Positions 1,740 through 64,000 of a stretch of DNA of 64,000 bases are shown in pieces. Below the pieces are notes generated by a model that saw nothing but the letters and a program-made list of their open reading frames with translations, was not told the DNA's origin and made no database searches. Position 1 is the stretch's first letter; each line of letters starts with the position of its first letter. The position numbers and the translations under genes were made by a program. Source of the DNA: Obrimoposthia wandeli (taxonomy: Eukaryota); contig CDROCS010002188.1 in the NCBI GenBank assembly GCA_977020255.1, forward strand, positions 1 through 64,000, written 5' to 3'.

Positions 1740-4366
1740 TAATACTGATATCCCCAGTTAATGCCAACAAGATGAAGAAATATTTAAAAATCCTTTTGTA
1801 GATTTAATTTATAGGAGCAAAAATGAGGGTACTCAGGTCAACTTAATTTTGCTCGAACAGAATAATAAATTCCATTATGCTGCAATTCCCAGTTTAAATC
1901 GTCTTCTAAATTTAGATAATGGAGCCTTACCGGTTAGGATAAGGTGTAAGTGGTGTCATAGATGTTTGCATGGATTCCGATCCGAGCTCTCTTACAGCAA
2001 ACATCTGACATTATGTTCACTGAATCCTGATGACAATACGCTATATAGCATGCCTAAGGATAAGGATTTAAAATTCAGGGATTGGGCAAAATGCATACCC
2101 GTGGAATTCAGGGTGTATGCAGATTTTGAGTCAATTTTAGCATTGCACGACCAGTATGAGAGTATTCACCTACCGGCTTCGGCAGGACTACTATTCTTAG
2201 GCCCTAATATTACACAGTATCATAAATTTTCCGGTCCAAATTGTATTTTAGATTTTATGTTAAAATTAGAAGAATTAGGAACAACAAATGTCTAACCGTG
2301 GTATGATCCTAATGCTCATCAAGCAATGATCATGACAGGCATAGACTGGGTTAATTTTAATTCTTGTAGATTATGTTATTTGTGTGGAACCCAGTCTAAG
2401 TTAGTCAGAGATCACAATCATGTTACGGGGCGATACTTGGGAGCGGCGTGCTACCTCTGTAACCTTGGCCGTCGTCTCCCTAAAAAACCACGAATTCCCA
2501 TCGTGTTTCATAACCTTAAAGGATATGATTTGCATCATATACTTAAATATGCGTTGGGTACATAAGGCTCTTGGGAAATTTCATGTATACCTCAAACTTC
2601 AGAGAAATATTTATCTTTAACTGCATATACTGAATTCTGCAGTTTAAGATTCATAGATTCTCTGCAGTTTTTGAGCGGGTCTTTAAAAAATTTAACGGCA
2701 TCTTTAAATGCATGGCCAATCACACAGTCAGTGTTCCCAGCTTCGGTTAATGATAAGGGGATTTTTCTGTATAAATTTGCAAAAACTTTTGCAGATTTAG
2801 AAAATACAACTGAAATCCCTTCCATAACTGAATTTGAAAGTGTAAGTCTTCAAGACTATAATGAGGCCCGTACATTTTGGGCGAATAATTGTCGAAATCT
2901 TTTCGAATATATGCTTTTTTATATGAAATTATACATTTATCTTTTAGCTGATGTTTTTGAGTCCTTTCGTGTAAAGACTTTAGCAGAAAATGGGCTAGAT
3001 CCCATGCATTTCTTTAGTTTACCTGGTCTTTCATAGGCAACAGCAATAAAAACTCTTAAAATAAATATCGAGTTACTGCATGATCCCGCGATGTATCAAA
3101 TGTATGATTATGGTATACGCGGTGGAATGACTTTTGTCAACAAACATCATGTTGTCAAAAATCAATCCACGGAGATTCTGTACATCGACATTAATAATAT
3201 GTATGGGTGGGCGCTTACTCAACCTCTACCTCATGCCAACTTTAAGTGGGTTTATGATGAGGAAGAGTTAAATAAGTTGATGACAGATTTGGCTACTGTT
3301 GATACAGTTTCATCAGACATCGGCTATTTGGTTGAGGTTGACTTAACAATCCCTTCCAATGAACATGATAAATTAGATGATCTTCCAGTAGCGCCTGTTC
3401 ATCAATGCCCACCTAATTCAAAGGTTAAGAAATTATTGTTAACTCATGAAGACAAGTTGAATTATGTCGTGCTTCTTCAATTCTACTTAACGTTGGGAGC
3501 GAAAGTCACTCGAATTCATCGTGCTATAAGCTTCAGTCAAAACTTTGTGTTTAAAGACTATATTGAGAAGAATTCTAGAAAACGTAATTTGGCCACTAGC
3601 AAATTCGAACGGGATTTTTACAAGTTAAAAAGTAATAGCCTCTTTGGAAAAACGTTAGAGGACTTGCGGAAACGTATTTGTCTACGGTTTTGCAATGATG
3701 AGCGTAAACTATTAAAAAAAAATAGCAAGTACAACTTCAAGCGTAGTTTTACAATTGCAGATGACTTGGTAGCAGTGTTATTAGGAAAACAGAGTAAACG
3801 GTTTTAGACATTTCTAAACTCAGAATGTACGAGCTTCAATACATAGAATTGGAGAAATATCGACGAGAATTCAATTGTGAGATCAAAATCGCAGCTGGGG
3901 ACACTGACTCTTTCTTTTTAGAATGTAGGAATGTTAGTTTAGATAATCAATTATTAGCGGCAATGTTTAGGGACAACTTACTAGATACCCATAAATATCC
4001 CGCTAACCATCCTCTACACTCTATGAGTTTAAAGGACATTATCGGGAAATTTAAGGATGAAAGCGAGGACAGGTTTCGTATGATGATTGTATTTTCTTAC
4101 GCCATAAATGCTACAGTTTACATGCATCTAATAATACATGTTCAATGAGAGCAAAGGGTGTGGGAAGAAACAATCTTACACATGAGGCATACCGGAAAGT
4201 TTATGATACTGGGTGTATTGAAAGCGTTGAGCAAACTAGATTTATTTCAAGAGCCCATCAACTGTATTCCCATAAATCAACAAAAATCGCTTTGAGTAGT
4301 AATGACGACAAGCGCTTTTGGGTAGAAAAGAACGCTAGCCTGGCTTATGGACACTTCCGAATTTAA
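1740..4366 (+). pseudogene. polB: Protein-primed family B DNA polymerase of Polinton A
   Basis: EndoVII-like insert CYLCG..DHNHVTGRYLGAACYLCN, Exo II HNLKGYD, motif A YIDINNMYG, motif B KLKSNSLFGK, motif C AGDTDS, C-terminal DDKRF; one frame from 1849 to 3807 with in-frame stops at 2293, 2563 and 3034, then a deletion and frameshifts. Confidence 0.95.
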
Positions 4367-4630: not shown

Positions 4631-5011
4631 CTAATCGTTTTGCAACTATAACCATAAAATACATCAATGTCCACAGTTTCTCGTCGCAGGATCCTGATAT
4701 TGTATCTTGTTGTAAAATACTCTTCTTCGTCCTTTTTGAATAGTTGAAACAAGTTTGTGTGGATAATACATTGCAAGTGGATCAAATACATGTATTGTCC
4801 ACTCTCTAACATAAATAGCTATCCAATGTTCTCCTGGTAAATTCGAAGTATGAGTATTGATAATGTAACCTCCAGATTGAAAAAATGGAATCATATCAAT
4901 AGGATAAACTCCATTGAATTTATCACCCAAGACCTTCTCTGCTGATTCTTGTACTTGTACTGAACTAAATAAAAATTAATAAATATAAATTTTAAAAATG
5001 TCTTACTTCAT
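4631..5011 (-). pseudogene. Adenain-like cysteine protease of Polinton A, with a 42-nt intron (4965-5006)
   Basis: Spliced start MN-SVQVQESAEKVLGDKF; catalytic GEHW, VFDP, Q-DPATRNCG; in-frame stops near the C-terminus. Confidence 0.88.
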
Positions 5012-5012
5012 T

Positions 5013-6240
5013 CTATAATATGACAGTTCTGTTTTTATTGATTTGTATTTCGGAATCACACTCCGTAAATAAGCACCGTAGTAGGATGTGTTAAATCTGC
5101 ATTGAAATTAATTTCTAGTCGTAAATTTCCATCCTTTGGTAGTTGGCATTGGTTTATATCAAAGTCTGGTGCCAAAACAAATGTGAAGAAGGGGCAGCTG
5201 CTTTTAAACTCAGTGAAAGAAATGCCATTGTTTATATTTTTATCTAGTTGGCCCAAATTCCGAATAATAGATTGCGTATAAGCCAAAGCATAAGCTTTAC
5301 CTTCGAAATCTGTTTTATATGTTTCGCGATAATCAGTATTTCTTGAAAGTGTCACTGAACCTACATTAAGATTGTCAAATTGAGTTGCATCTGTCGTATA
5401 ATTTCCTAGAAACTTTGCAGTTTTTTGAAAAGAAATTAAAATGAATTTTGGTAATCTTACATCACCAAAAATTTGATCCTTATTAAAAGCTTGTGTACCC
5501 GTACCTAAAGAGTAGGATATAAGTTTAGTTTCTCTAATAGGATAACAAGCATTGTTTTTTTCCATTCCTATATTATGTGCCATTAAAACTGATTGCTCGG
5601 TTTTAACTCTTCGGACATACAATTTTGCATCCAAAATATCAAGTCTAGGTTTTAGAACGTCTGTGCTTATCAAAGAAAAATTCCATTTATTACGTTTCAA
5701 ACGAAGATGTACATTAACACCGGGAATTAAATATTTCGGTTGTTCAAAGAAATTCAATCTCAAAGACTCACACATTTCGTAAGCTTTAGAACCTGCAATC
5801 CATTCTTTGCGAGTTGCGACCGTTTTATCATAACCAATGGTTGCCAAATTGGTATTTTGTGTATCAGTACTATAATTCAAAAGACTTTCAATCAAAGCTT
5901 TATGAGCATAGGAAGAATTTCCATCTTCAATTTTGACATTATTAAGAGTAACAATGGCATCATTAAATAAAGAATTAAAGAGATAATTTACAGGTGTTAC
6001 ATCTGCATTTTCATCTAAATTAGTACCATTCCGATTTAATACTTTTATTTGAACATAAAGCAAAGTATCATTCAAATCTAAATACTCGCTATTGGAACCA
6101 TTAATATTAAATTCTAAATCGGTTAAAGTGGTTCCTGAAACTGAGTTAACTAGAAATATTTCTTCAAAGGAAGCATTATCTACAACTACTTGTGGAAGTG
6201 GTTTATCAAAAATACACAATTCAGTTTTGGCGCAACTCAT
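5013..6240 (-). CDS. Major capsid protein (double jelly-roll) of Polinton A
   Basis: 394-aa ORF starting MSCAKTELCIFDKPLPQ; restoring a 2-nt deletion at about 5058 gives C-terminus YGVFDSEIQINKNRTVIL, matching the second copy at 22011-23212. Confidence 0.9.
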
Positions 6241-6614
6241 TTTGCAAATATTGTTCCTTCAACATTCTTACGTTTGTTTATATTGATTTTTTGCTTCTTT
6301 TTACTTTTAAATCCACTACCTCCTTGGCTTTTATTTGATTTACGTTTTCTAATCAAATTAGCAACTCCAGGTAAAACATTATCAAGTTCATCAAGTGCAT
6401 GCTTCTTAAAAGTTGATATTAGTTTATTGTCCTTAGATGAAAGGTAGTCCTTTCCTAATTTTGATATAAATCGCCCGAGTCTCTTTAAAAGAGGAAAGGC
6501 AAATCTACCTAATGTTCTAAGCCAGCCAGATCCGTATTGTTTTCCAACAAAATACGGTAATTCTCCACCTTGTTGGCTTTGACTATAAGCTTCAATTATT
6601 GCTGGATTCGCCAT
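6237..6614 (-). CDS. Small basic core / membrane-active protein (adenovirus pX/pVI-like) of Polinton A
   Basis: Intact 125-aa ORF with QQGGELPYFVGKQYGSG, an amphipathic helix (WLRTLGRFAFPLLKRLGRF) and a Lys-rich tail; sits between minor and major capsid genes. Confidence 0.72.
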   Translation of the reverse strand: MANPAIIEAYSQSQQGGELPYFVGKQYGSGWLRTLGRFAFPLLKRLGRFISKLGKDYLSSKDNKLISTFKKHALDELDNVLPGVANLIRKRKSNKSQGGSGFKSKKKQKININKRKNVEGTIFAK

Positions 6615-7656
6615 TTTGTTTTCTTAAATGTATTGTTAAACTTGTCTTGGTCCCGTACGTGAAATCTATTAGTTGTCCGGAATCATCTCTAATATTTACT
6701 TCAATATTGTTTATAGAAAAGAGAGAAACTGAAAGATACATTGGTTGATCTATACACATGCCGACAGCGTCCCCATCTCTAGTTTCATTTTTAGATATCC
6801 ATATTGTTCTCAAAAGTGGAACTCGCTGTCCTCCTACAAGCGTTGGTTCTATTAAATTAGTATAAATATATAAATGATTAACAGCATTTAAATGTTTTGC
6901 CTTATTTTTAGCTTTTATGGTTTTTTATTATATGGGTTTCAAAGGTATTTCTGATTAAACCAAGGTTTTTAGCGAGTTTATCATCAAATAAAACTCGTAT
7001 TATATTGTTCTTTACTGTAAACGTTATTTTACCATTTTTTAATGTTACACATTTATCGAAATATTCACTACATTCCTTCTGTATTAATTTACAGAAATTC
7101 ACTTCACTATCTAATTTATAATCTTTTGAAAACATTTTCAGTTCCACTACATACTTTGGTCTCGTTTCAACTAAAAACACTTTTGTTACTCTATCAGGAA
7201 CATTTTTAAACGATTTAGATGAGGCTATATCAGATCTCTTCATACCTACTACATGTCCACTGTCAAAACCGAATTGAAGAGCTTCTCTATCAGATCCAAA
7301 TATAATTTGAATAGGTTTTAAAAATGTTTTAGTCTATTTTTAAATCTGACTTTGTTTTTTTCATATATTACTTTCACTTCTTTATCTATACAATTGTAAT
7401 AGAATTTTCCTTTACTATCAAACCCAATCACAACTTCAATTGATTTTTCATGATCAACTTCTTTTGTAAACGAAATATGGGAGTTTTTTCTGATAGTAAT
7501 TGGAGAATAATAAAAGGAAAATTCTGTTAAAGCCGCTTCCCATTCTCCTTGGAGATTTATAGGATTTTCCCAATCGATAATAAAGCTACTAGCGTAATTA
7601 TCTGGTTGAGTCTTCGGACATCCGTTACTAGGTAAAACCATATACATAGACTTCAT
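6600..7656 (-). pseudogene. Minor capsid (penton-like) protein of Polinton A, frameshifted
   Basis: N-terminus YMVLPSN..PDN..SSF...GEWEAALTEF; C-terminal block HLYIYTNLIEPTLVGGQRVPLLR..IEVNIRDDSGQLIDF..LTIHLRK; split over three ORFs. Confidence 0.85.
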
Positions 7657-8679
7657 ATTATATTAGATGCTGATATCCAAGTTGGATCTGAATAACCATT
7701 CCATTTAACATAGTATTGTTTATGTTTACCGGCACCCTTAGATTTTAATATTTTTTGAATACGGAAAACGCTAGGTTTATTTGATATTACTTGTAGTTCT
7801 TGCTCGTAAAATTTACCGTGAACGATATTATTGTCAGCATATTTAATAGTATACATTATTGGATTACTCTTTTGATCAATTTTACTTATACAAAATATTT
7901 CATCGCTCCAATTCTGATCAAAGTTTTTAATATATGGAGTAGAGCTAATTTTAGAAATTCGGACATATTCGTTTTTCTTATATTTAGCTTTTTTAATATT
8001 TTCTTTATTATTCCTGTTCATCTAAATATCCATAGAATTTTTATTAGTAACATCAAGAGGTCTCATTCCCTTGAGACCTCTATGTTCCGAGAGTGATTAT
8101 ATGCATGTATTATTTTAGGTAAAACTTGGATCCATTTTTTATTTCTTTCTTTTGTGAAATACCTTTTTATTCGATCTCTTAAAGTACGATTAAATCTTTC
8201 TACTTCTGCTGCTTTATACTGTGAAAACACAGAGTAGTGATTTATATTATTTTGTTTAAATAAAGATTGAACTTGCTTATTATAAAAATCTTTTCCTAAA
8301 TCCGTTTGCACATTTTGTGGAATGTCCTCTTTTAATATTTCTTTAATGGCTTCAAGCATAGCTATTGAAGACTTTGCTTTAACTGGAATTGCACGAACAA
8401 ACCTGCTAAATACATCAATACATGTTAAAATATATCGATATCCCTTATTAATGGAAGAATATATTGTTCTTTACTGTAAACGTTATTTTACCATTTTTTA
8501 ATGTTACACATTTATCGAAATATTCACTACATTCCTTCTGTATTAATTTACAGAAATTCACTTCACTATCTAATTTATAATCTTTTGAAAACATTTTCAG
8601 TTCCACTACATACTTTGGTCTCGTTTCAACTAAAAACACTTTTGTTACTCTATCAGGAACATTTTTAAACGATTTAGAT
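7001..8679. repeat. Identical 220-bp direct duplication (7001-7220 and 8460-8679)
   Basis: Base-by-base comparison showed no mismatch; the second copy caps the broken end of Polinton A. Confidence 0.9.
7653..8450 (-). pseudogene. Retroviral-type (rve) integrase with C-terminal chromodomain, 5'-truncated
   Basis: YILTCIDVFSRF, QTDLGKDF, VERFNRTL; C-terminal FRIQKILKSK..YYVKWNGY..TW; first catalytic Asp region missing; one frameshift and one stop between 8021 and 8063. Confidence 0.92.
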
Positions 8680-9842
8680 TTTTCTATAATGTAATCATAA
8701 TGTGATTCTTCACAATCATTTCACACATAATTCTAGTCAGAAAATGCATTATTATATCAACTGTATTTCATCACATAAAACTATACTTAACCTTTTTAAA
8801 ATCATATACAAACGTTAACTCTTATGACAATAAATATATATTTTATGTGGAGCTATAAATCACAATAATGCCCAATTCATCAAACACACACTCCGACATC
8901 GTCGATAAGAAACAAAGCACTGAAAAGCTTTCACAACATTCAAATCAAAATTTCAAATTATTGTGATTCAGCATTTGCTAATATCAAGGCAGCACTTAAT
9001 ACATTTATTTTATCACTTTCAAACACTTTCATATCACATATCTTAAACTAATATACTGACAAATTTAAATATCCATAATTAGAAATAATAAAAACAGAAA
9101 TAACAACATGGCGATAATATATTTAATATATCGCTAGAATCCAATAAATATATGCTTTATTACTTCAAAGTACTTTCAGTTTTTCTATTCAGGAGCTCTA
9201 TAAAAATAACTAACACTTTTCTTTGATTTGAATATAATTTTGACGGCTTTCTTCGAATTTTTGGCAAGCCACGTTTCTGATATATGTTTAAAAATTACTT
9301 TTAAATACCAGTATAACGTTTTAAAATTCATGAAATTTAATTTATTTAATCAAACTTGCGCTTCAAAGTATTAATGTCAACAATAAAACTTGTTTTTTGG
9401 CTATCTGCTTTAAACCTGGAAAATATTGAAAACAGTTGTTCATTAGATAAACTGGTATTAAGAAGGAAATCTCTGATAAAGAATGATCCCAAATGTTTTG
9501 ATACTCAAGTTTTACACCTGACCCACATGACTTAACTGTTAAGTCTTGCATTAATGCTATTGGGGATTATGACGCATGAGAATTTTGGCTTGTTTGAATA
9601 TTTTTTAGTGTACGTTGAAATATAAACTTTGAATAATCATGCGTCTTGTACTAGTATCAAATAATTTCTTGGAACAGTGTTGAAGCAGAATTCCCCTTTT
9701 TATATTACAGAATTCGTAGCAAAGTCGAACACTATCGTTAGCTTACTTTTATTGTGTCATAAAAATGGTCAAGATCCAAATTTTTAAAAATGACCCAAAT
9801 TATATAATTAGGAAGTGCTAATCAAACCAGTAAGATATTCAC

Positions 9843-14076: not shown

Positions 14077-14665
14077 AATAACTTACAACATATTAAATTG
14101 AAAATATGCAAAAATATATCATGTTTACAAGTAAATTTATTGTACAAATCATTAATATTATGATTATTAAGTAAACTACTTGAAGATTTTGTTGAAAATT
14201 ATATTAAAGTAATAACTTACAACATATTAAAGTGAATATATGCATAAATATATTATGCATACAATTAAATTTATTGTACAAAACATTAAACTTATGATTA
14301 ATAAGTAAACTACTTGAATTTTTTGTTGAAAATTATATTAAAGTAATAACTTACAACATATTAAATTGAAAATATGCAAACAAAAATATTATGTTTACAA
14401 GTCAATTTATTGTACAAATCATTAATATTATGATTATTAAGTAAACTACTTGAAGTTTTTGTTGAAAATTATATTAAAGTAATAACTTACAATAAATTAA
14501 ATTGAAAATATATATGCAAAAAATATATTATGTTTACAAGTAAATTTATAGTAAACGACAGTAAAATATCAATTACTTTTTATGTAATGGAAAATTACAG
14601 TAATAATTTACAATATATTAAACTAAATATATGCAAAATTATATTATGTTTACAAGTCAATTTTC
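14077..14665. repeat. Tandem repeat, about 134-bp unit, about 4.5 copies
   Basis: AATAACTTACAA anchors at 14077, 14211, 14345, 14481 and degenerate at 14602. Confidence 0.9.
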
Positions 14666-15760
14666 GAATGTCTAGTAAACAAAACTAAATAACTCGAAAG
14701 AACTTTTACTATTTGAAAGAATACATTTAATAGTACTTTATATTTGAAATTTATATTATAGACAGTCGGTGGGGTACAGCTACTAACTTTATAATTAAAA
14801 TATTTTTAATAGTTTAAAAATAAAATCACTTGATAAAATACCACAATAATGTGGTAAAGAAATATTATATAACATATAAAAAGAATTTTTGAAGAAATAA
14901 TTGAATATTCATATTATATTGATAAGAGAATGGCAAAAATATCAAGTAATTAAAAAAAAATAAAATTGTTTGTTGAGTTAATTTACTAAATTTGTATATA
15001 AATATATTTTCGAATAGTTAAAAAGAGAAACGAATAATGATAATTTCAATTATATTTACGAATATAATTTTATAATCAAGTTATTTAAAAATAAAGAATT
15101 TAAATTTATCTAATTATTTTAAAATATTTCAATTAAGGAATGTTATTAAACGAGATATACATTTTAATTAATTAATTGCATGAGTATGTATGAAAGGTTA
15201 ACTTTAACATGGAGGTAAACTATGTGAAAATATGAAAGTTCACATCTTAATTATTATAACTTCATCAGGTTGTTACATCATCTTCATTGATTGATAGTAT
15301 TAATTTAATAATTAGCTAGTACTCACTTGCATTTTTAGATTCACTTGCAAAGATTCTTACTTGTATTTGCATTCATACTTGCATTCACTTACATTCATTC
15401 TAACTCTCATATATTTAAACTAGCATTCAAATTCATTAATATATTTACTAATTTTCATTCATAATTGACATTTGTACTTGCAGTCGTATTCTTTCTTACT
15501 TGTACTTGTAGATGCATTCAATCATACTTGCATTCATTTACATTCAATCTAACTGTAATTTATTCAAACTATCATTCAATTACATTCAAATACATTAATA
15601 TTTTACTAATTTTCATTCATACCTTCAAACTTAGTGTTGTTTTCTATTAATCTTGCATTAACTTAGTCGTTCTAACTTTTAACATACTTCAGTTTCCCTG
15701 ATTTTTTATAGTTGCTTACTTGTTATTAATCTAACTGTAACTTAACATAACTTTATTCAT

Positions 15761-16330
15761 ACGAAAACTCTATTTTAATTTACTTATAGTCTAAATTACA
15801 CTCGCATTCAATCAAACTATCGACACTCTTATTTATTTATTTTTTTCAATTACATTCACTTGCTAAGACTCTTGCTTGTATTTGCATTCACTTGCATTCA
15901 TACTTGCATTCATTTACATTCAATCTAACTATAATTTATTCAACGAAAACTCTATTTTAATTTACTTATAGTCTAAATTACACTCGAATTCAATCAAATT
16001 ATCGACACTCTTATTTTTCAATTACATTCACTTGCTAAGACTCTTGATTGTATTTGCATTCACTTGCATTCATACTTGCATTCATTTACATTCAATCTAA
16101 CTATAATTTATTCAACGAAAACTCTATTTTAATTTACTTATAGTCTAAATTACACTTGTATTCAATCAAACTATCGACACCCTCTTTTTTAAATTACATT
16201 CACTTGCTAAGACTCTTACTTGTATTGACATTCATACTAGCATTCACTTGCATTCATACTTGCATTCATTTGCATTCAATCTAACTCTCATTTATTCAAA
16301 CTATCATTCAAATATTCAAATAAATTAATA
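15761..16330. repeat. Tandem repeat, about 172-182-bp unit, about 3 copies, built from CTTGCATTCA sub-repeats
   Basis: ACGAAAACTCTATTTTAATTTACTTATAGTCTAAATTACAC recurs three times; degenerate precursors at 15300-15760; related to the 61650-63494 array. Confidence 0.88.
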
Positions 16331-16407
16331 TTTTACTAATTTTCATTCATAGCGTTAAACTTAGTGTTGTTGTTGTTTTGTTTTTTTTCCGTTGTAACTT
16401 AGTCGTT

Positions 16408-16509
16408 GAAAAGAAAAGAATGTATAAAGAATGGACTTTCTTACTTTGTAAATGTTATTCACTTAAGTTTGAAGATGATATTATGAAATTACATAATAAA
16501 TGTGTTTAA
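16408..16509 (+). pseudogene. polB: Short polB C-terminal remnant inside element X
   Basis: EKKRMYKEWTFLLCKCYSLKFEDD aligns with FLSCKCSPIKFEDD (17860 region) and FLRHKCYSL (polB A). Confidence 0.65.
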
Positions 16510-16629
16510 TTTTGTATTATTATATGACTTCTTTCTTATTTTATTTTTTTATTTTAATATATAATTTAAGTTATTTAAAGAAATTTTATCTTAATTCTAT
16601 AGATGTATAAGCCTAGGAAAAAATTTTGA

Positions 16630-17480
16630 TCTAAACTTTCACATAGAATAGTGTGTGTGTTAAAAACCACATTCCTTAACTGATAAGAGTGAACTTTAGA
16701 CTAAATTTTCACATAGAATAGTGTGTGTATGATTACGTAATACATTCCTTAACTTTTAAGAGTGAACTTTCACATAGAATAATTGATTGAATACTATATA
16801 ATTTCTTAATTTATGCCAAATCTGACCCTTAACTTGTGAACGACCATAAAATTTTTACATGAATAACCTCGTAATATGTTGACAAATACAACCATGTACT
16901 TGAAACTATGAAATTCCAACTTTTTTTAAACCCTTCATCTATGGACGACCATACATATATGGATGAATTCGTCTTCTAAAGATGATTACAACCATGTATT
17001 CAAACCTTGACATTTAAAACTAGATTTGGTCTATAGCTCGACCCTTTGATTTATGGACAGTCATACTTTATGGGTGACTTCGTCTTCTAAAGATGATTAC
17101 AACCATGTACTAAAACCTTGATATTTAAAAAAAAAATTTTAGCTCGACCCTTTGACCTATGGACGACCACAACCCTTTAGATGTGCCGCCCAACCATAGT
17201 TGACCTTAATTATACTTTCAAAGTTTCAAGTCAAAACTGAGTCTGACCCTTTGATTTATGGACGACCACAACCCTTTAGATGTGATGGCCAACCAAAGTT
17301 GACCTTAATTATACCTTCAAAGTTTCAAGTCAAAACTGACCTTGACCCTTTGATTTTTGGACGACCATGACCCTTTAGATATGTTGGTTGACCATAGACG
17401 GTCATGACCATACCTTAAAACCTTCAAGTCAAAACTGACCTTGACCCTTTGAATTATGGACGACTACAACCCTTTAGTGG
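16630..17480. repeat. Polinton subterminal arm: about 70-bp repeats (x3) grading into 99-bp repeats (x4-5)
   Basis: TTCACATAGAATA at 16638/16708/16769; GACCCTTTGA at 17040/17146/17245/17344/17443. Confidence 0.88.
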
Positions 17481-17673: not shown

Positions 17674-17962
17674 TTGGAGATACTGATTCATTTTTTTTAG
17701 AATGCAAAGGTGTTAATTAAGAAATCAGTTGTTACCTCAAATGATTGCAGATGGAGCATTATTTACGTCAAATTATAATGTGAATGCTCAATTATATTCT
17801 AATGAATTTAATAGTAAAATAGGATTATTTAAAGATGAATCGAAAGAAAGAATGGATTTCTTATCTTGTAAATGTTCCCCAATTAAGTTTGAAGATGACT
17901 TTGAAAATAATAAAGCAAAATGAGTAAATCTTAAACGATCAACAGTTGTACACCAAACATAT
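17674..17962 (+). pseudogene. polB: 3' half of a split polB (element P)
   Basis: Starts at the TSD and reads G-D-T-D-S-F-F-L-E-C-K, later IGLFKDES and KCSPIKFEDD..KAK; truncated near 17962. Confidence 0.9.
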
Positions 17963-19376: not shown

Positions 19377-19486
19377 GTGTGGCAAGACACCCTTATGGTG
19401 TGACACCCTTATGTTGAAAATCCTTTAACATTGTGTGCGCACAAGGGGTGGGGTCAAGTGGCTTAGACTCCATCCTTCTACCTACT
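19377..19486. repeat. Terminal 110 bp of the other TIR of element X
   Basis: Nearly identical (2-3 differences) to 17563-17673 in the same orientation; followed by CTCCAA, the reverse complement of the TSD. Confidence 0.92.
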
Positions 19487-20890
19487 CTCCAACAACTATA
19501 TTAATTGAACAATTAAATAGTGATCTATAATTTTGTAAATCATGATACTGAAGATTATACATTCCTAATTTGCTAATGTCTAGTACAGCTTGACCTATAT
19601 AGTTTGGACGATCGAGACAAATAAAATCTTTTCTTAATAAAACAGCTATTAAATTAACATGAATTTCAATTGATCGTTGAAACATAGGTTTGTTAGTATA
19701 TGTGATTACTTTTGTAGAACTAGTGCAGATGCGAAGATTCAACCGTTTCTTAACATTTTCAACGGTATTTCAATACAAACTAACATTTTTAAGTTTATAA
19801 AAAAAAATTGTTACATTTATTCGTTGCTTGATATAATATTTCTGAATTATATTCTATATATTCTGCGAATATCTTAGCCCGAGAGAAATATACTACTCGA
19901 TGAATAATTGTTATCACTGCTCCTAAATAAACATACATCTGCAATAGTCTCCAATGAATAACGTAATGACGTTTTGGCGAATGTGTCATTAAAAGTTTTT
20001 AATTTTTTTTACCAGGTGAACATTTCTTTTCTGGAGCTATATGTAGATCGTCTAAAAAGTAATGAAGGTTTTCTGGTCTACCTCCATAACATAACCATAT
20101 TCAATATGTTCCATGTTCACATTTTCATTTCATGTAATATTTCGTTTAATTTATATCATCAAGAATCCATTCAAAATCTCCTTTTGGTAAAAGTTGATCA
20201 AGAGCCCATCCATATAAATTATTAACATCTGTATATAAAAGACTCGTTTCTTCATCAGCAACTACATGATGCTTATTGAAAAATGTCATTCTTCCACGTA
20301 TACCCGAAGAAATTATGTTGTACATTTCAGGATCCAGCATCAGTTCAACTTTATGTTTTAACATTTTTAGAGCACTTGCCCAGCTCAACCCAGGAATGCT
20401 AAAAAAGTTAAGTGGTTCTAAACCATCTTCGCTGAGAGCTTTTCTTCTGAATGTTTGAAACACGTCAGCTAATAAATATACGTCAGTCTTTAAGTAAACT
20501 AATATATAATCCATCATATTTCTACAATTTGTTATTCTCCAAACATCTTGTGCATTTTGATATTCAGTGTCTTTGATTTTATCATTCCATTTTACTGATA
20601 AACTTAACTTATTCTGGAGGTCATTTAATGATGTAGCAAAATCATATGGGATTATTCCTTTACCATCAATGAGTTTAGATGGATAAACTGATCTTGTTAA
20701 TGGAATACTTGGTAATTAACTGGCTAATTTCTCCAAAGATGATTGTAAAAATAACAAAGAATCTATAAATCTCAGAGTTATTTGACCTAATCTTACAATC
20801 ATTGCTTGAAATATTTCTGTCGATTGAGGTAAATATGATGTAAATCATAACCTCTGAGATAATGAAACACAATGACAGTGGGATCAATTT
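19487..20890 (-). pseudogene. polB: 5' part of the split polB (element P)
   Basis: VFHYLRGYDLHHI, RFIDS, KTDVYLLADVF, YTDVNNLYGWA, FYKLKN, PNYIGQAVLDISK..MY; ends IVVG at the TSD; several frameshifts. Confidence 0.93.
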
Positions 20891-21345: not shown

Positions 21346-21470
21346 ATTATTTATATAATTTATTTTTGTAATGTTTTTCGTTCCTGGAGATCAAGAATGA
21401 AGCCCGCCCGAAGGGGCGGGTTGTGTATGTTAGGGGCTGGAGTGTGACACGGGTCGTCTACATGTGTAGT

Positions 21471-21870
21471 CACCAACACCCACCGACTTTCACCCACCAC
21501 CCAACACCCACCACCTACCACCCACCACCCAACACCCAACATCCAAAACCCAACACCCACCGACTTTCACCCATCTCCCAACGACTTTCACCCAACACCC
21601 AACACCCACCGACTTACACCCACCACCCAACACCTACCTACTTACACCCATCACCCAACGACTTACACCCATCACCCAACACCCACCGACTTTTACCCAC
21701 CACCAAACACCCACGGACTTTCACCCACCACCCACACCCAACGAATTTCACCCAACACCCACCGACTTTCACCCACCACCCAACACCCACCGACTTTCAC
21801 CCACCACCCAACGACTTACACCCATCACCCAACACCCATCGACTTTCACTCAACACCCACCGACTTTCAT
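21471..21870. repeat. C/A-rich composite minisatellite (ACCCAACACCCACCGACTTTC-type units)
   Basis: Direct reading; source of the His/Pro/Thr ORF at 21423-21971. Confidence 0.92.
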
Positions 21871-21879
21871 CCAAGGACA

Positions 21880-21923
21880 GAGGGGGGAGGGGGTGTGGAT
21901 TAGACCGGACACATCCACCTACT
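21880..21923. repeat. Second type of Polinton terminus
   Basis: Reverse complement AGTAGGTGGATGTGTCCGGTCTAATCCACACCCCC resembles but differs from the X terminus AGTAGGTAGAAGGATGGAGTCTAAGCCAC. Confidence 0.7.
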
Positions 21924-22014
21924 GTGTTGAACAAAATGGAAAGGGTCTTAAACGTAAAAGAAATAATTTAAATAGTATAAACAAACGTCTTAAAGGTACT
22001 ATTTTTCAAAATGA
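21924..22014 (+). pseudogene. C-terminal remnant of the pX-like gene of element M
   Basis: VEQNGKGLKRKRNNLNSINKRLKGTIFQ aligns with the Polinton A protein tail QGGSGFKSKKK..NKRKNVEGTIFAK; cut at the 21923 terminus. Confidence 0.7.
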
Positions 22015-23212
22015 CTAGTGTAAATTCTGAATTGTGTATTTTCGATAGACCATTGCAACATGTAGTGATTGAAAATTCAAGTTTTGAAGAAATATTTCCA
22101 ATCAATTCAATTACTGGTGGAAATTTAAATGTCATATAATTTAATATTCATGCATCTGAAGAAGATTATCTATATTGGAATGATACTTTGCTAAATATTA
22201 AATTAAAAGTTGTAAATTAAGATGGTACTGATTTAATGAAAGATGTAACTCCAGAGAATTACGTTTCAAACTTTGTTTTGAGATGTTATTCTAACACTTA
22301 ATAATGTTAAGATTGAAGGAGGTAATAGATCATATACTCATAAGGCTATTTTCGATACTCTTTTGAATTTTAGTAGTGATACCAAGTAACCTTGAATTCT
22401 CCGGGTATGATGATCATGCAGAAAGTCGTAAACAATGGATTAGTGAATCTAAAATATTTTCATTGTGTAATTCAATTAGATTCTTTGATCAACCAAAATA
22501 TTTAATTCCAGGAATTAATGTTCATTTGAGATTTATGAGAAATCAGCATAATTTTTCGCTCTACTCAGAAACTTCAAAACCAATTATTCAAATTCTAGAT
22601 GCCAGATTGTATGTTAGACGAGTAAAAGTTGATTCTTCAATAATATTTGGACATCAGTTAGGTTTGCAAAGTCAGAATGCAGTTTATCCAATTAGAAAAA
22701 CTCAGTTAGTATCATATTCAATTCCTCAGGGTTCTTTAGAAATTAGTAAAGATCAAATATTCGGAGACTTTCGTTTACCAAAGCTCATTTTGATTGCTTT
22801 CAAAGCTACACCTCAGGGTGGTAATGAATACAAAGTTACATATTCTAGGTTCAATACATTTAATGTTTCAACAATATCATTAGCTAGAAATACAGAATAT
22901 CGAGAGACTTATAATCTAAATAATTTAAAAAATTCATTAGCATATATGCAGTCAATTATTCGAAACATGAATATTTTAGATAAAAATTTGAATAATGGTA
23001 TCAGATTTTCTGATTTTAAATCAAAAAGTTCAATTTTCACTTTTCTATTAGCACCAGATTTTGATATAAACACTACTCAAGTACCGAAAACTGGCAATTT
23101 AAGGCTTGAAATTAGATTTAATTCTCCTTTGACTGCTCCAACAAGTGTTTTGATATACGGAATATTTGATTCCGAAATTCAGATTACGAAAAATAAAACT
23201 GTGATTGTATGA
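22011..23212 (+). pseudogene. Major capsid protein of element M
   Basis: MTSVNSELCIFDRPLQ.. to ..YGIFDSEIQITKNKTVIV; clearly homologous to the Polinton A capsid; stops and frameshifts in the first 370 nt. Confidence 0.9.
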
Positions 23213-23585
23213 AGTAAGTATATTGTATATTATTTTCTTTATTTAAATTAGTACTTTAGAAATTTATAAATCCGGAAAAATATTATTGAATAACAAATTT
23301 AATGGAGTATATTCATTGGTTAAAATTTCATCATTAAAACCCAGGGGCTACTTTATCAATACTCATACTTCAAATCTACCAGGTGAACATTGGATAGCAA
23401 TATTCGTTGACAGGTTCGAGATTCGAGTGTTTGATTCTTTTAGATTCTATTATCCTCCAAAGTTGGTGTCTACACTTGAAAAAGAAAACATTCCAATCTA
23501 CTATAATCGAATTAAATGTCAGAATCCATTAACTAAAATCTGCGGACCTTTGAGTTTTTTATGGTTGAAACTTCAATACAAATAA
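23209..23585 (+). CDS. Adenain-like protease of element M, with a 38-nt intron (23214-23251)
   Basis: Spliced MN-TLEIYKSGKILLNNKFNGVY..PGEHW..VFDS..QNPLTKICG; open to the stop at 23585. Confidence 0.88.
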
Positions 23586-29059: not shown

Positions 29060-31588
29060 TTTTTTTTCATTAACCTCTGGGCTATCGCTAATCTACTTCC
29101 TTGCAATCATCCCTGCATTCCTCCATATTTCCACCAACTGATCTTTTAGCTTATCTACTTCGGTTACTGAAGACACTGAATCTAGACTAACGTCCATGTA
29201 GGTTGATTGCAAAATTGTCTCACTGGCTCTTGGATTCTTCACTTTAAAAGTTTCTGCGTTTACTCTGGTTACCAGTTGAGCCAAGAATGGTGAGGCATTT
29301 ATTCCAAAGACTACTCTCTGAAATTCATACATTTCCTTCTGATTCTCTCTATTTCTCCATAAGAACCTTATCCATGGCCGGTCTTCCTTACATACCTTGA
29401 TCTGTAAGTACATCTCTACTACTTCTTTGATACATCGGTGTAAATCCAGGTGGTCAGCTCCAATCAGTATATCAACCTTCTTCTGGGACTCTGAATTCGG
29501 AAATGCAATACCTGCTAAATGTTGCCATTAAGATGATTCTTCAGACCAGTTTATCACCTCCAAGCTGTCAGCAATTTCCTCCAGGTTCAACATCTTTACT
29601 ACTCGTTTAAGTTTCCCATTTCTGCTGCTAATTTCGGCTTCTATCTCTTCACAATCTAACTTACGCACCTCACCATCAATAACTTCCACAGGCAGTTCTA
29701 TTTTTGTACCTCGTGCTCTGAAAGTGCAAGCTATTTCCTTACTTATATATGATAGGGTACTAGCGTCATCTAATAGTGCGTTCGCGCATGTTTCAATTCC
29801 TTTTCTCCTTATTATCACTGACACTGTCCTTAGCACTATGAATGCGCGTGCCTTCTGTTGATTGTCCTTTATTACCATTGTTTGACCTACTATTCTTTCC
29901 CCCCTTTGTCGTGCAGAAGCCAGTGATGCTTTTCGTGGCATCCATATGTCTGACATAACTGGTTAAATCTACACTTCTCTACTGTGTGATTACTACGTCA
30001 GCAATTCTTGCATATTTTCTCTCTATCGACCCACTTCTGCCTCGCTGCCACTGTCAACTCTCTAACTTGCTCACATTAATCAGTATAGTGGTTGGCTTTA
30101 CATTTTGCACATTCGGCCTATCTTTTGATTCTTGTAGATTGGTTTATACCGTTTTCCTGTTCCCTTTACTATTCGCAAAAAAAAGTGTGATGGTAATGAT
30201 GTGTATCATTGTTCCATCTCCAGTGTTTTTCAACGTAGATGGTTCGTATTCTTTGATTCTCACGACTTCCATTAACCTCATTGGCTCTTCTTAGATTCTC
30301 ACTTTCTTGCTGGGCCCATATCTTTACGTACTTATATTTTCTTTATCCCTGTTTTGTTGGACACACTTCGTCCAATCCTTCAGTTCTAACATTGGCAACT
30401 TTCTCAAAAGCTTGTTGAACAGAAACCCATTTCCAAGATCAACTTTGTTGCCTTCTTCTCTTGCTCTGATTACTATCTTGTTTGTTAATAGTACAAGTGC
30501 GTCCAGATCTTAGTCTTCTCTCCATCTTATCACTCTAAACATTTCAACTTCGTCCACCAAACCTCTATTATTTCTTTCCCTTCCTCCGTATCTTTCTTTT
30601 AGCAATCTTAAAGTTTCGTCATAACTTGCATCCATGAACCCAAGGTTTTGAATTAACCTGTAAGGTTCACGCCTCACATACTCCATCAGTTGCAGCATTT
30701 TTTTCTTGCTTTGACGCATTGGTCTGATCGATGACAGTATCAAATATTGCCCTCCAACTTTCGTATTCCTTATAGTCCCCGAATAAATATGAAATCCTAA
30801 TCTTTTTTAGCCCCTTCCATACATTTTGGCCTGACTTATTTTCCCTGAGTTCATCTCTCATATTCCTTGATTCTTTTGTTGTCCTATTTTCAAATTCCTT
30901 TTCTGCTTTTGCTATTTCACTCTTTATTTCCTTTATCTTGAGTTGGTCTTTGTTTTTCACCGCCTGCTCCAACTCTATGTTCTTCTGGTCACTGAATCTT
31001 CGTACGATATCCCTATACCTCTTTCTCTTGTCTGAATCCTCTTCCGTATTCCGTGCTTCCGTCCATTCATCCCCAGCCAATATTATATCCAATCTCGTAA
31101 CCCTCTCTGCTCTTCCATTGTTTTCCTCCCCCATTCTGCTACCATGTTTGAGGGAATAACATCATTTGATGTTATAGGGATTTCTGATAACATTGTTACA
31201 ATTGTTACAAAATGGTAAGTTGAAGGTTGAGAGGATAAATAGTGACTGGAAAATTGTCGAGATGATGATGAAGGTTGAGGCACCGGAATATTTGAGGGAA
31301 TAACTTCATAAATAAAAACATAAATTCAAAATCACAATTTTTTATTGATTTACTTTAAACTTTTAAACTATAAACTTTATTCTTAACAACATTAACTTTT
31401 AAGTTACCAACTACCTTGGTAAAACACCTGGTAAATTCATGTTAAAAACCTTCATAAAAAAGGACCTTCATCACTACTTCTACTACCCACCTATCATCGT
31501 CATCTACTATTTAATTTATTTTATTAATAATATTTTAATGTATTTAATTCCATTCTATTTAATTCTATTCCATTACCATTCTTCAACA
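29060..31588 (-). mobile_element. Bel/Pao LTR retrotransposon, internally deleted and 3'-truncated
   Basis: Gag (GDYKEYESWRAIF..LLKERYG), protease ALLDDAST, RT MYLQI..FLW..RVVFGINASPF..YMDV; about the first half of RT and everything after RT is missing. Confidence 0.9.
31145..31588 (-). repeat. 5' LTR (444 bp, TG..CA) followed by tRNAi-Met primer binding site
   Basis: Minus strand starts TGTTGAAG, ends ..AAACA, then TGGTAGCAGA (31144-31135) immediately before the gag ATG. Confidence 0.75.
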
Positions 31589-60100: not shown

Positions 60101-61649
60101 TGGTAGTCAACTCAGTTAAGTGGAGTGTGAAGATCTACCACTTCCATTACTCAGCACCTTCGGCTTTACGCTAGCCGTCAATTGGGGAGAAAATGGTTTT
60201 AAATGTTTCATGGTTTCTTCAGGTCATATTTAGTGATTCGTCGGGACGTATATTTGCATATTTTCAACAAATCGTGAACTACCATCATGTATTTTATTTC
60301 ATTTTAAAACTCAGCTGAAGTAAAAATTGAATCTAAAAGCGAAGTCACTTCTGCATCAGTGATGTTCTGAAGAAGCACATGTGAGACTACAGAATCAACT
60401 GCAACGTATTACCACTTTTTAGCAGAGTTGTTGTGCTAACAATTCGTATGTAACCCACTTAAATCACGAGGCCAATGACCTTGAATTTAAATATAGCTCA
60501 TCTCCACTACTACATCAACTAAGAGTGGAGTAGAAGTCGGTCATACAGATGAGCAATGTGGTTGAGCTCATTGTCTCGTTTATGTTTCTAATGACACTGT
60601 CAACAACATTACAGAATCCCAATTCACCATAGACAAAGCTAGATCAAAGTGTAGACAATACAATACTGACTTTGTTTATAATAACACAACTACTGTACTA
60701 AACTTTCCAAAGTACCATTAAGTTAAAAGATAATAAACTCTTCGCAGCCCAGTTTATTATAACTCATAGAAGCTTATCAAATGGATGGGCTCCGCGACAT
60801 TAACACTTAAAATTATGGTTGCATACCTGAAAGATTTACTTTTAGAAAATTCCGTATAATTCGTCGTTAGTAAGGAGTACTCAGCGACATTATGGATAAA
60901 AATTCCGATTTAGTACATAAGTAGGTGGAAGGATGGAGTCTAAGCCACTTGACCCCCCCCCCTAAAGGGTGTCACTCCATAAGGATGTCACATCATAAAA
61001 GGTGTCTTGCCACACCATAAGGGTATATGTTGCCTCACCTTCGGTGACCCAACATGAAAGGGTAAAGTGGCTTAGTCTCCATCCATCTTTTAGTGATCTA
61101 GTCTCCACCCTTCTTTTTGTGATCTAGTCCATAATGAAAATTTATGATAAAGTTCACACTTAACAATTAAGAATGTATGACGTAATCATACACACACTAT
61201 TCTATGTGAAAATCAAGGCTAAAGTTCACTCTTATCAGTTAAGGAATGTGGTTTTTAACACACACACTATTCTATGTGAAAGTTTAGATCAAATTATTTT
61301 CCTAGGTTTTTCACATTTATAGAATTATGATAAAATTTCTTTAAATAACTTCAATTATATATTAAAATAAAATAAAATAAGAAAGAAGTCAGAGAATAAT
61401 ACAAAATTAAACACATTTATTATGTAATTTCATAATATCATCTTCAAACTTAAGTGAATAACATTTACAAAGTAAGAAAGTCCATTCTTTATACATTCTT
61501 TTCGTTTCAACGACTAAGTTACAACGGAATTAATAGAAAATTAGTAAAAATATTAATTTATTTGAATATTTGAATGAGAGTTTGAATAAATGAGAGGTAG
61601 AATGAATGTAAATGAATAAAATTATGCATGCAAGTATGAATGTCATTTA

Positions 61650-63494
61650 CAAGTAAGTGGGTTTAGCAAGTGAATGTAATTTTAAAAATAAGAGTGTCGA
61701 TAGTTTGATTGAATGCAAGTGTAATTTAGACTATAAGTAAATTAAAATAGAGTTTTTGTTGAATAAATTATAGTTAGATTGAATGCAAGTATGACGAGCA
61801 AGTGTTTGATAGTTTGAATTTTCAATACAAGTAAGTGGGTTTAGCAAGTGAATGTAATTTTAAAAATAAGAGTGTCGATAGTTTGATTGAATGCAAGTGT
61901 AATTTAGACTATAAGTAAATTAAAATAGAGTTTTTGTTGAATAAATTATAGTTAGATTGAATGCAAGTATGACGAGCAAGTGATTGATAGTTTGAATTTT
62001 CACAAGTAAGTGGGTTTAGCAAGTGAATGTAATTTAAAAAATAAGAGTGTCGATAGTTTGATTGAATGCAAGTGTAATTTAGACTATAAGTAAATTAAAA
62101 TAGAGTTTTTGTTGAATAAATTATAGTTAGATTGAATGCAAGTATGACGAACAAGTGATTTGATAGTTTGAATTTTCAATACAAGTAAGTGGGTTTAGCA
62201 AGTGAATGTAATTTTAAAAAAATAAGAGTGTCGATAGTTTGATTGAATGCAAGTGTAATTTAGACTATAAGTAAATTAAAATAGAGTTTTTGTTGAATAA
62301 ATTATAGTTAGATTGAATGCAAGTATGACGAGCAAGTGATTGATAGTTTGAATTTTCAATACAAGTAAGTGGGTTTAGCAAGTGAATGTAATTTTAAAAA
62401 TAAGAGTGTCGATAGTTTGATTGAATGCAAGTGTAATTTAGACTATAAGTAAATTAAAATAGAGTTTTTGTTGAATAAATTATAGTTAGATTGAATGCAA
62501 GTATGACGAGCAAGTGATTGATAGTTTGAATTTTCAATACAAGTAAGTGGGTTTAGCAAGTGAATGTAATTTTAAAAAAATAAGAGTGTCGATAGTTTGA
62601 TTGAATGCAAGTGTAATTTAGACTATAAGTAAATTAAAATAGAGTTTTTGTTGAATAAATTATAGTTAGATTGAATGCAAGTATGACGAGCAAGTGATTG
62701 ATAGTTTGAATTTTCAATACAAGTAAGTGGGTTTAGCAAGTGAATGTAATTTTAAAAAATAAGAGTGTCGATAGTTTGATTGAATGCAAGTGTAATTTAG
62801 ACTATAAGTAAATTAAAATAGAGTTTTTGTTGAATAAATTATAGTTAGATTGAATGCAAGTATGACGAGCAAGTGTTGATAGTTTGAATTTTCAATACAA
62901 GTAAGTGGGTTTAGCAAGTGAATGTAATTTTAAAAAATAAGAGTGTCGATAGTTTGATTGAATGCAAGTGTAATTTAGACTATAAGTAAATTAAAATAGA
63001 GTTTTTGTTGAATAAATTATAGTTAGATTGAATGCAAGTATGACGAGCAAGTGTTTGATAGTTTGAATTTTCAATACAAGTAAGTGGGTTTAGCAAGTGA
63101 ATGTAATTTTAAAAAATAAGAGTGTCGATAGTTTGATTGAATGCAAGTGTAATTTAGACTATAAGTAAATTAAAATAGAGTTTTTGTTGAATAAATTATA
63201 GTTAGATTGAATGCAAGTATGACGAGCAAGTGATTGATAGTTTGAATTTTCAATACAAGTAAGTGGGTTTAGCAAGTGAATGTAATTTTAAAAATAAGAG
63301 TGTCGATAGTTTGATTGAATGCAAGTGTAATTTAGACTATAAGTAAATTAAAATAGAGTTTTTGTTGAATAAATTATAGTTAGATTGAATGCAAGTATGA
63401 CGAGCAGTGATTGATAGTTTGAATTTTCAATACAAGTAAGTGGGTTTAGCAAGTGAATGTAATTTTAAAAAATAAGAGTGTCGATAGTTTGATT
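61650..63494. repeat. Satellite array, about 178-bp monomer, 10 full copies plus a partial
   Basis: CAAGTAAGTGGG at 61650, 61828, 62003, 62182, 62362, 62540, 62720, 62898, 63077, 63256, 63433; differences mostly in homopolymer length. Confidence 0.97.
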
Positions 63495-63779
63495 TTTTTT
63501 TAAATTACTTGATATTTTTGCCATTGTCCGTTTAATATAATATGAATATTCAATTTATTTCTTCAAAAATTCATTTTTTATATGTTAAATAATATTTCTT
63601 TACCACATTATTGTGGTTTTTATCAAGTGATTTTAACTTTAAACTATAAAAATATTTTAATTATAAAGTTAGTTGCTGTACCCCGCCCACTGCATATAAC
63701 ATAAATTTCAAATATAAAGTACTATTAAGTTTATTATTTCGAATAGTAAATGATTTTTCGAGTTATTTAATTTTGTTTA

Positions 63780-64000
63780 CTAGACATTCGAAAATTTACT
63801 TGTAAACTACAATATTTATTTGTTGTTGTATATATTTAGTTTAAAATGTTGTAAGTTATTACTTTAATATAATTTTCAACAAAAAACTTCAAGTAGTTTA
63901 CTTATTAAACATAAGTTTAATGTTTTGTACAATAAATTGACTTGTAAACATAATTTATTTTGATATATTTTCAATTTAATATGTTGTAAGTTATTACTTT
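63780..64000. repeat. Start of the 134-bp tandem repeat in element C
   Basis: Reverse complement of the 14077-14665 unit (TTGTAAGTTATTACTTT twice). Confidence 0.85.

Follow-up and report, generated by a model that had tools for sequence, protein, structure and literature searches.

The window analysed here, that is, the whole stretch of 64,000 nt from Obrimoposthia wandeli (contig CDROCS010002188.1), has a GC content of about 30% and contains satellites, a reverse-transcriptase fragment, one exon of a G-protein alpha subunit (G-alpha) and two decayed copies of a Polinton-type element, referred to below as A and M. On its minus strand, element A carries integrase pieces with an rve core and a chromodomain (7653-8470; rve match at 8063-8470, E 4.5e-9), broken ORFs at the minor capsid gene position (6592-7656; no Pfam match), a small basic ORF at the PW gene position (6237-6614), a major capsid protein gene of double jelly-roll fold (5056-6240) and a protease gene. 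The minor capsid and PW names were given from gene order only, following PMC8097293; the order of integrase, two ORF groups, capsid and protease, including its capsid-protease end, matches the vertebrate Maverick gene list in the sections of that source that were covered. The genes of A abut, with no promoter room between them, and stop and start codons overlap both at the integrase/minor capsid boundary and at the PW/major capsid boundary, where the stop of the PW-position ORF overlaps the capsid ATG. A family B DNA polymerase gene (DNA_pol_B_2) on the plus strand (1762-4366) converges on the protease and is split by stops and frame changes. Element M lies on the plus strand and comprises a major capsid gene (22011-23212), the 5′ third of which is broken, followed by a protease gene; no integrase was found in M. 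Between A and M, the capsid-protease region shows about 66% DNA identity and the protease frames 49% protein identity. DNA_pol_B_2 matches were obtained at 3037-3807 in A (E 9e-18) and at 20146-20715 near M (E 6e-11), both of them broken. The decay of A also affects the two genes at its protease end, with an early stop of the capsid frame near its 3′ end (5058-5056) and a stop of the protease frame (4666-4664) before the end point of its relatives.

No packaging ATPase was found among the 33 + 104 ORFs scanned, the copies being partial and A possibly running past the left edge of the window, and no inverted pair among the 25 longest of 69 repeat pairs flanks A or M. Within the A polymerase, 2296-2565 on the plus strand encodes an endonuclease VII-like zinc domain (Pfam E 2.6e-5). 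Additional disrupted fragments of family B polymerase at 19485-20880 (minus strand) and 17693-17851 (plus strand) are 40-60% identical to that of A, and their orientation to the M capsid-protease region is unlike the convergent layout of A. On the 5′ side of the A integrase lies a second copy of a segment of about 220 nt from the presumed minor capsid region (8460-8688 vs. 7001-7229, 98-100% identical), a recent local rearrangement. CA-rich tandem arrays with 7-, 14-, 21- and 28-nt units occur at 788-1016, near the start of the A polymerase, and at 21452-21908, just upstream of the M capsid gene; such arrays may be subterminal repeats of A/M-type elements. Outside the elements, a GC-rich first coding exon of a G-alpha subunit, followed by a GT donor, was located at 10175-9843 on the minus strand, with generic G-alpha matches only and no second exon recognised before element A, which may mean that A is enclosed by a large host intron or that the exon is an orphan. 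Among the 104 further ORFs of the window, no host gene exceeded curated cut-offs. Long inverted repeats at 14077-16800 and 61000-64000, about 45 kb apart, are 89-95% complementary and contain 134-, 172- and 178-nt tandem units; they could represent the two arms of a foldback-type element of very large size, with M inside it. The degraded reverse transcriptase and its upstream ORFs at 29093-31161 on the minus strand (RVT_1 E 3e-4) presumably derive from a BEL/Pao LTR retrotransposon.

The assignment of the protease and the capsid relied on profiles and structural models. Searched singly, neither the window protease nor the window capsid was recognised by Pfam, the best PDB hit of a single protease had an E value of only 0.2, a PDB profile search with the capsid gave no match, and a single-sequence search with the M protease returned 0 matches among 13 candidates, so profiles were needed. 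The results showed that a profile of 118 protease sequences matches the adenovirus protease (E 8e-9), and that 104 of the 118 aligned members match Pfam Peptidase_C5, although the M protein alone does not; His, Gln and Cys are invariant in the alignment. The protease model (pLDDT 89.5) had the adenovirus 2 protease, 1nln, as its top Foldseek match (TM 0.75), and the capsid model (pLDDT 89.8) best matched the capsids of iridovirus, PBCV-1, mavirus and Sputnik (E 3e-13 to 7e-12). Family B polymerase, rve integrase, double jelly-roll capsid and adenain-like protease are thus all present, as in Polintons/Mavericks (eupolintoviruses, "adintoviruses"). The related proteases P0121-P0380 are unusually short, about 110-125 aa vs. 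about 204 aa for the adenovirus protease, and end soon after the helix of the catalytic Cys.

Inspection of the protease start revealed the same arrangement in both copies. In element A (minus strand), the ATG at 5011-5009 and AA at 5008-5007 are followed by a GT...AG segment of 42 nt at 5006-4965 with the donor GTAAGA and the acceptor TTTAG, and then by exon 2 (4664-4964), which carries the His, Asp, Gln and Cys-Gly motifs. In element M (plus strand), the ATG at 23209-23211 and AA at 23212-23213 are followed by a GT...AG segment of 38 nt at 23214-23251 (donor GTAAGT, acceptor ATTAG) and by exon 2 (23252-23585), which has the adenain fold and the His, Asp, Gln and Cys residues. The coding part of exon 1 therefore consists of the ATG and two bases of codon 2 (5007-5011 in A, 23209-23213 in M), and both putative introns are in phase 2 inside codon 2, with U2-type ends (GTAAG-type donor and YAG acceptor) in 2/2 window copies. 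The initial annotation had described this anatomy exactly, down to the Met-Lys-stop that both copies give when unspliced; only the span it assigned to the intron of A, 4965-5011, proved to be exon 1 plus intron, the intron alone occupying 4965-5006. Its further statement that both ATGs abut or overlap the capsid stop was correct for M, in which the capsid TGA overlaps the protease ATG (ATGA), but not for A, in which the capsid frame stops early and the TAG at 5015-5013, one base before the ATG, is in another frame. This TAG sits in a pyrimidine-AG context (5018-5012, minus strand) and could act as an acceptor for an upstream leader, giving a 6-nt exon; M has no AG there.

The base composition of the two introns (55% T and 2-3% C) differs from that of the downstream exon (31-34% T and 16% C), and the intron interiors of A and M resemble each other no more than shuffled sequences do (p = 0.74); the initial annotation had already noted that the interiors differ. 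The 10-mer ATGAAGTAAG occurs exactly twice in 128 kb (both strands), at the A and M intron sites, against a dinucleotide expectation of 0.23, the two occurrences not being independent draws since the sites are homologous. Excision of the intron restores the homologous reading frame: when relatives starting with Met-Asn or Met-Asp were aligned by tblastn, 6 of the 8 alignments began at residue 2, the acceptor-spanning codon (4966 or 23250), and the other two at residue 1 (4969) and residue 10. The M protease frame contains zero Met codons, and the first Met of the A frame comes only after helix 1 and strand 1; a normal AUG start would therefore need the splice. The dependence of a normal protease on host splicing proposed earlier thus follows for M, as far as its reading frame indicates.

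A wider comparison was made with relatives of the protease, taken as the best 150 of 1737 and the best 120 of 960 matches, which gave 260 distinct proteins, 4 of them dropped for length. These relatives are protein calls, so we infer the origin of many of them from unspliced contigs from their N-termini, and their splice sites from translated read-through. A quick tree of 148 relatives together with A and M, built on the core only (93 columns, first 19 positions omitted), separated a far group of 85 rows (SH-aLRT 82) from 57 near rows, with 6 outlying rows left uncounted. The near group with A and M is an unresolved fork rather than a proven clade, and the following counts are phylogenetically non-independent. 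Met stands at position 1 in only 4/57 near rows vs. 75/85 far rows, the N-terminus is absent from 24/57 vs. 3/85, and Ser occupies position 2 in 29/33 near vs. 2/82 far rows among those having the column. In 28 of the 57 near rows the protein has an N-terminal extension ending in this Ser; one near row, on a long branch, fits no class.

AG followed by the pyrimidine of a phase-2 codon encodes Ser, so that the Ser at position 2 represents an acceptor that has been read through. In all 28 rows, this Ser is preceded by I, F, N, C, Y, V, L or S and never by K, E, Q, M or W; codons that can end only in a purine are thus found 0/28 times, vs. 13% in the rest of the extensions, which fits the requirement of a YAG acceptor. 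The last ten residues of the extensions consist to 81% of F, L, I, Y and N, vs. 37% in the core. Moreover, all 10 extensions of 13 or more residues contain a donor read through 35-47 nt upstream, in one of three forms. The footprint x-Glu-Val was seen in 5 relatives, with introns of the 3n+2 class (35, 38, 41, 41 and 47 nt); Trp-Ser, from ATG GA followed by GT, in 3 relatives with introns of the 3n+1 class (37, 40 and 40 nt), whose spliced start would be Met-Asp; and Met-Lys-Tyr(-Val) in 2 relatives with introns of the 3n class (42 and 45 nt). The donor count never exceeded 4 in 20,000 shuffles, and among 15 control extensions a single one scored, at the 60-nt edge; the Trp-Ser class was added after one example had been seen, which makes the shuffle test partly post hoc and, together with the non-independence of the relatives, these figures descriptive. 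The 12 visible intron lengths fall into the three phases as 6, 3 and 3. Three frame-specific footprints within one narrow length range would be hard to explain otherwise. A conserved spliceosomal micro-intron missed by ORF callers, as first proposed from the two window copies, is therefore strongly supported beyond them, as judged from read-through in conceptual translations.

The four near rows with Met at position 1 are P0272, P0276, P0126 and P0287, which may be spliced transcripts or intron losses. Three of them (P0272, P0276 and P0126) begin with Met-Asn, the start expected after splicing and here seen in close kin, and each represents either a transcript or an exact loss of the intron; P0276 stands beside two rows of the intron type (support 93). 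Truncation at contig edges may account for some of the N-terminally short calls, and a genuine new ATG may lie in the six 2-residue extensions. In about 52/57 close relatives, the N-terminus called from the contigs appears to be wrong or absent.

The association of such proteases with intact capsids was also analysed. Eight N-terminally short proteases could be paired with full-length capsids (402-418 aa) by identical contig size and source, on contigs of 3-28 kb, where chance would give 0.14 matches at 3 kb or more and 0.7 overall. In a capsid tree of 113 rows, all 8 paired capsids group with A and M in a clade of SH-aLRT 98, and the capsids of 5 far-group proteases paired on contigs of at least 5 kb lie outside the A/M capsid clade. 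Two shorter source-sharing pairs were split, P0323/P0102 agreeing and P0368/P0002 (2817 nt), a Met-start protease with a near-clade capsid, disagreeing; the latter may be a chance pairing or a counter-example. Capsids of the A/M clade are mostly only 50-60% identical to that of A. The protease intron, as read from these N-termini, is found in elements with intact capsids. No intron was seen in the capsid genes of A and M, and the A capsid gene shows no intron-sized gap relative to intact relatives.

Taken together, the segment inside codon 2 is very likely a spliced intron, a clade-level, start-proximal one rather than a peculiarity of the window. The reading we favour, with a probability of about 0.7, is that the intron was gained once, inherited within a clade and is removed constitutively by the host spliceosome. 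According to this model, a single U2-type spliceosomal intron would have entered codon 2 of the protease in the ancestor of one Polinton (eupolintovirus-like) clade, whose members would have retained it in a minimal, AT-rich form of 35-47 nt. The late cassette would be transcribed by host RNA polymerase II in the nucleus, and excision of the intron by the host spliceosome, most likely constitutive, would rebuild the usual Met-Asn or Met-Asp start and the first helix. The protease ATG may be reached through a separate promoter within the capsid gene or through reinitiation at the overlapping stop. Selection would act only on the splice ends and the length window. The intron would persist because splice sites are essential once present and exact loss is rare, so that regulation is not necessarily the reason. 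Whereas the DNA anatomy, the fold and the footprints in the relatives are directly observed, the occurrence of splicing, its constitutive mode and the single gain are what we infer from them; accepting these, the elements probably need host splicing for a normal protease.

The initial annotation went further and suggested that splicing gates the protease, slow or conditional removal of the intron keeping it low, late or tissue-restricted relative to the capsid, with unspliced RNA yielding a two-residue peptide. The Met-Lys-stop of unspliced A and M would suit such a gate, as would the retention of the intron across a clade of such divergent capsids, with no intron seen in the A and M capsid genes, and a maturation protease is needed in small amounts. 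However, 2 of the 10 introns visible in relatives (P0296 and P0366) are of the 3n class and stop-free, where a neutral simulation expects 1.4-2.1 among 52, and their unspliced RNA would yield an in-frame protease with 14-15 extra residues. In addition, the donors are near consensus, the 75/85 distant relatives with Met directly at position 1 lack such a gate, the stop/start overlap is not special to the protease given two more in A, and any intron in an essential gene is expected to be retained. The capsid stop is only a few bases away from the junction, which would be too near for junction-dependent decay of a shared mRNA. Gating is thus unsupported by the present comparison, and we consider it unlikely.

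Considerably less probable is a real acceptor whose splicing partner is, additionally or predominantly, a donor further upstream, belonging either to a late leader of the adenovirus and adomavirus type or to the capsid gene; in the latter case a capsid-protease fusion would result. According to the portion of 10.1101/341131 covered, late-gene splicing in adomaviruses joins a leader of three exons to acceptors located immediately 5′ of the ATGs, potential hexon-adenain fusions, for which frameshifting was proposed, are described in the available part of PMC11071296, and the abutting genes of A leave no space for a separate promoter. On the other side, the acceptor here is downstream of the ATG, unlike in adomaviruses, and a local ATG with a donor is present in 12/12 visible cases, an arrangement that a start supplied from another place would not require. 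Least probable of all is that no splicing occurs and that the segment is an AT-rich spacer with a downstream or non-AUG start, or a chance similarity in decayed copies: the degraded state of A and M and the Ile, a possible non-AUG start codon, just before Ser in 9/28 relatives could be taken in its favour, but the residue is another one (F, N, C, Y, V, L or S) in 19/28, a downstream start would delete helix 1 (residues 2-15 of the predicted model), and the fixed Ser and the 10/10 donors at 35-47 nt would be left unexplained.

Some narrower candidates were ruled out. A translated N-terminal extension is incompatible with lengths in all three phases and with the stops in the window copies, and a non-AUG start at the codon before Ser fails in the same 19/28 relatives. 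A flatworm-type spliced leader joins in phase 0, so that an AUG supplied by it would give a phase 0 junction and not the phase 2 junction found here. A special meaning of the capsid/protease stop/start overlap was also discarded, as overlap is general in the cassette.

The putative clade-level intron was compared with known systems. The ORFs of intact vertebrate Mavericks are intronless in the sections of PMC8097293 consulted, and the core genes of a nematode Maverick are likewise intronless, with introns only in cargo genes, in the part of 10.1101/2022.07.12.499685 that was covered; in contrast to both, a core morphogenesis gene here appears to carry a clade-conserved intron. The portions surveyed of 10.1101/2023.08.22.554363, PMC8502044, PMC11296320, PMC6431247 and PMC8363768 contain no mention of a spliceosomal intron in Polinton genes, and no report of one in the Polinton protease was found in the parts of papers that the literature survey comprised, although an annotation of this intron may exist elsewhere. 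The introners of dinoflagellate eupolintoviral proviruses, as presented in the available part of PMC12166617, likewise generate introns within Polinton-like elements, about one in four being located in coding sequence; they are young, scattered transposon copies with selection against gene insertions, whereas the protease intron occupies one old, fixed position with randomised interiors. Adenoviruses and adomaviruses resemble the present elements in being nuclear dsDNA systems with hexon followed by adenain and late genes expressed through host splicing, but they join a distant leader to acceptors 5′ of each ATG (10.1101/341131, covered sections), instead of removing an intron of 35-47 nt within codon 2. 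The group I introns of cryptophyte Polinton-like viruses also reside in a small gene adjoining the capsid gene, but this is a different gene upstream of the capsid, and those introns are self-splicing, 309-376 bp long and not spliceosomal (PMC12220804, in the part covered). Introns of such a length are normal in some animals, whereas the window itself yielded no short host intron. Examples come from flatworm host genes: in the liver fluke Opisthorchis felineus, intron length peaks at 37 bp and microintrons, with near-consensus splice sites and a weak polypyrimidine tract, are enriched near gene starts (PMC6530080, in the sections consulted); these are host-gene introns, and the comparison gives plausibility only.

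Relative to the literature surveyed, a micro-intron close to the start of a core morphogenesis gene and shared across a Polinton clade appears to be new. It is a tentative and rather unlikely extension that a widespread, apparently intact lineage uses a host-sized protease micro-intron as a switch for virion maturation. If this were true, mature virions would be limited to hosts or cell states able to excise introns of 35-47 nt, setting a silent transposon apart from a virion-making state, and the splice junction, present only in RNA, would mark late-gene activity of Polintons and point to the hosts of metagenomic elements. Independently of such a switch, the retention of splice signals across a deep clade implies that the protease has been transcribed in the nucleus, spliced and needed as a protein. 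Polinton virions have not been observed according to the covered parts of the literature surveyed (PMC8097293, 10.1101/2023.08.22.554363, 10.1101/2022.07.12.499685), and the kept splice signals would provide independent evidence for a virion-forming cycle. Since the wrong or missing N-termini concern so many calls, other Polinton genes may likewise contain introns that have gone unnoticed. The narrow length window points to hosts with very short introns, and because the junction k-mer exists only in RNA, public transcriptomes could show when, where and in which host late genes of the elements are active, free of confusion with genomic copies.
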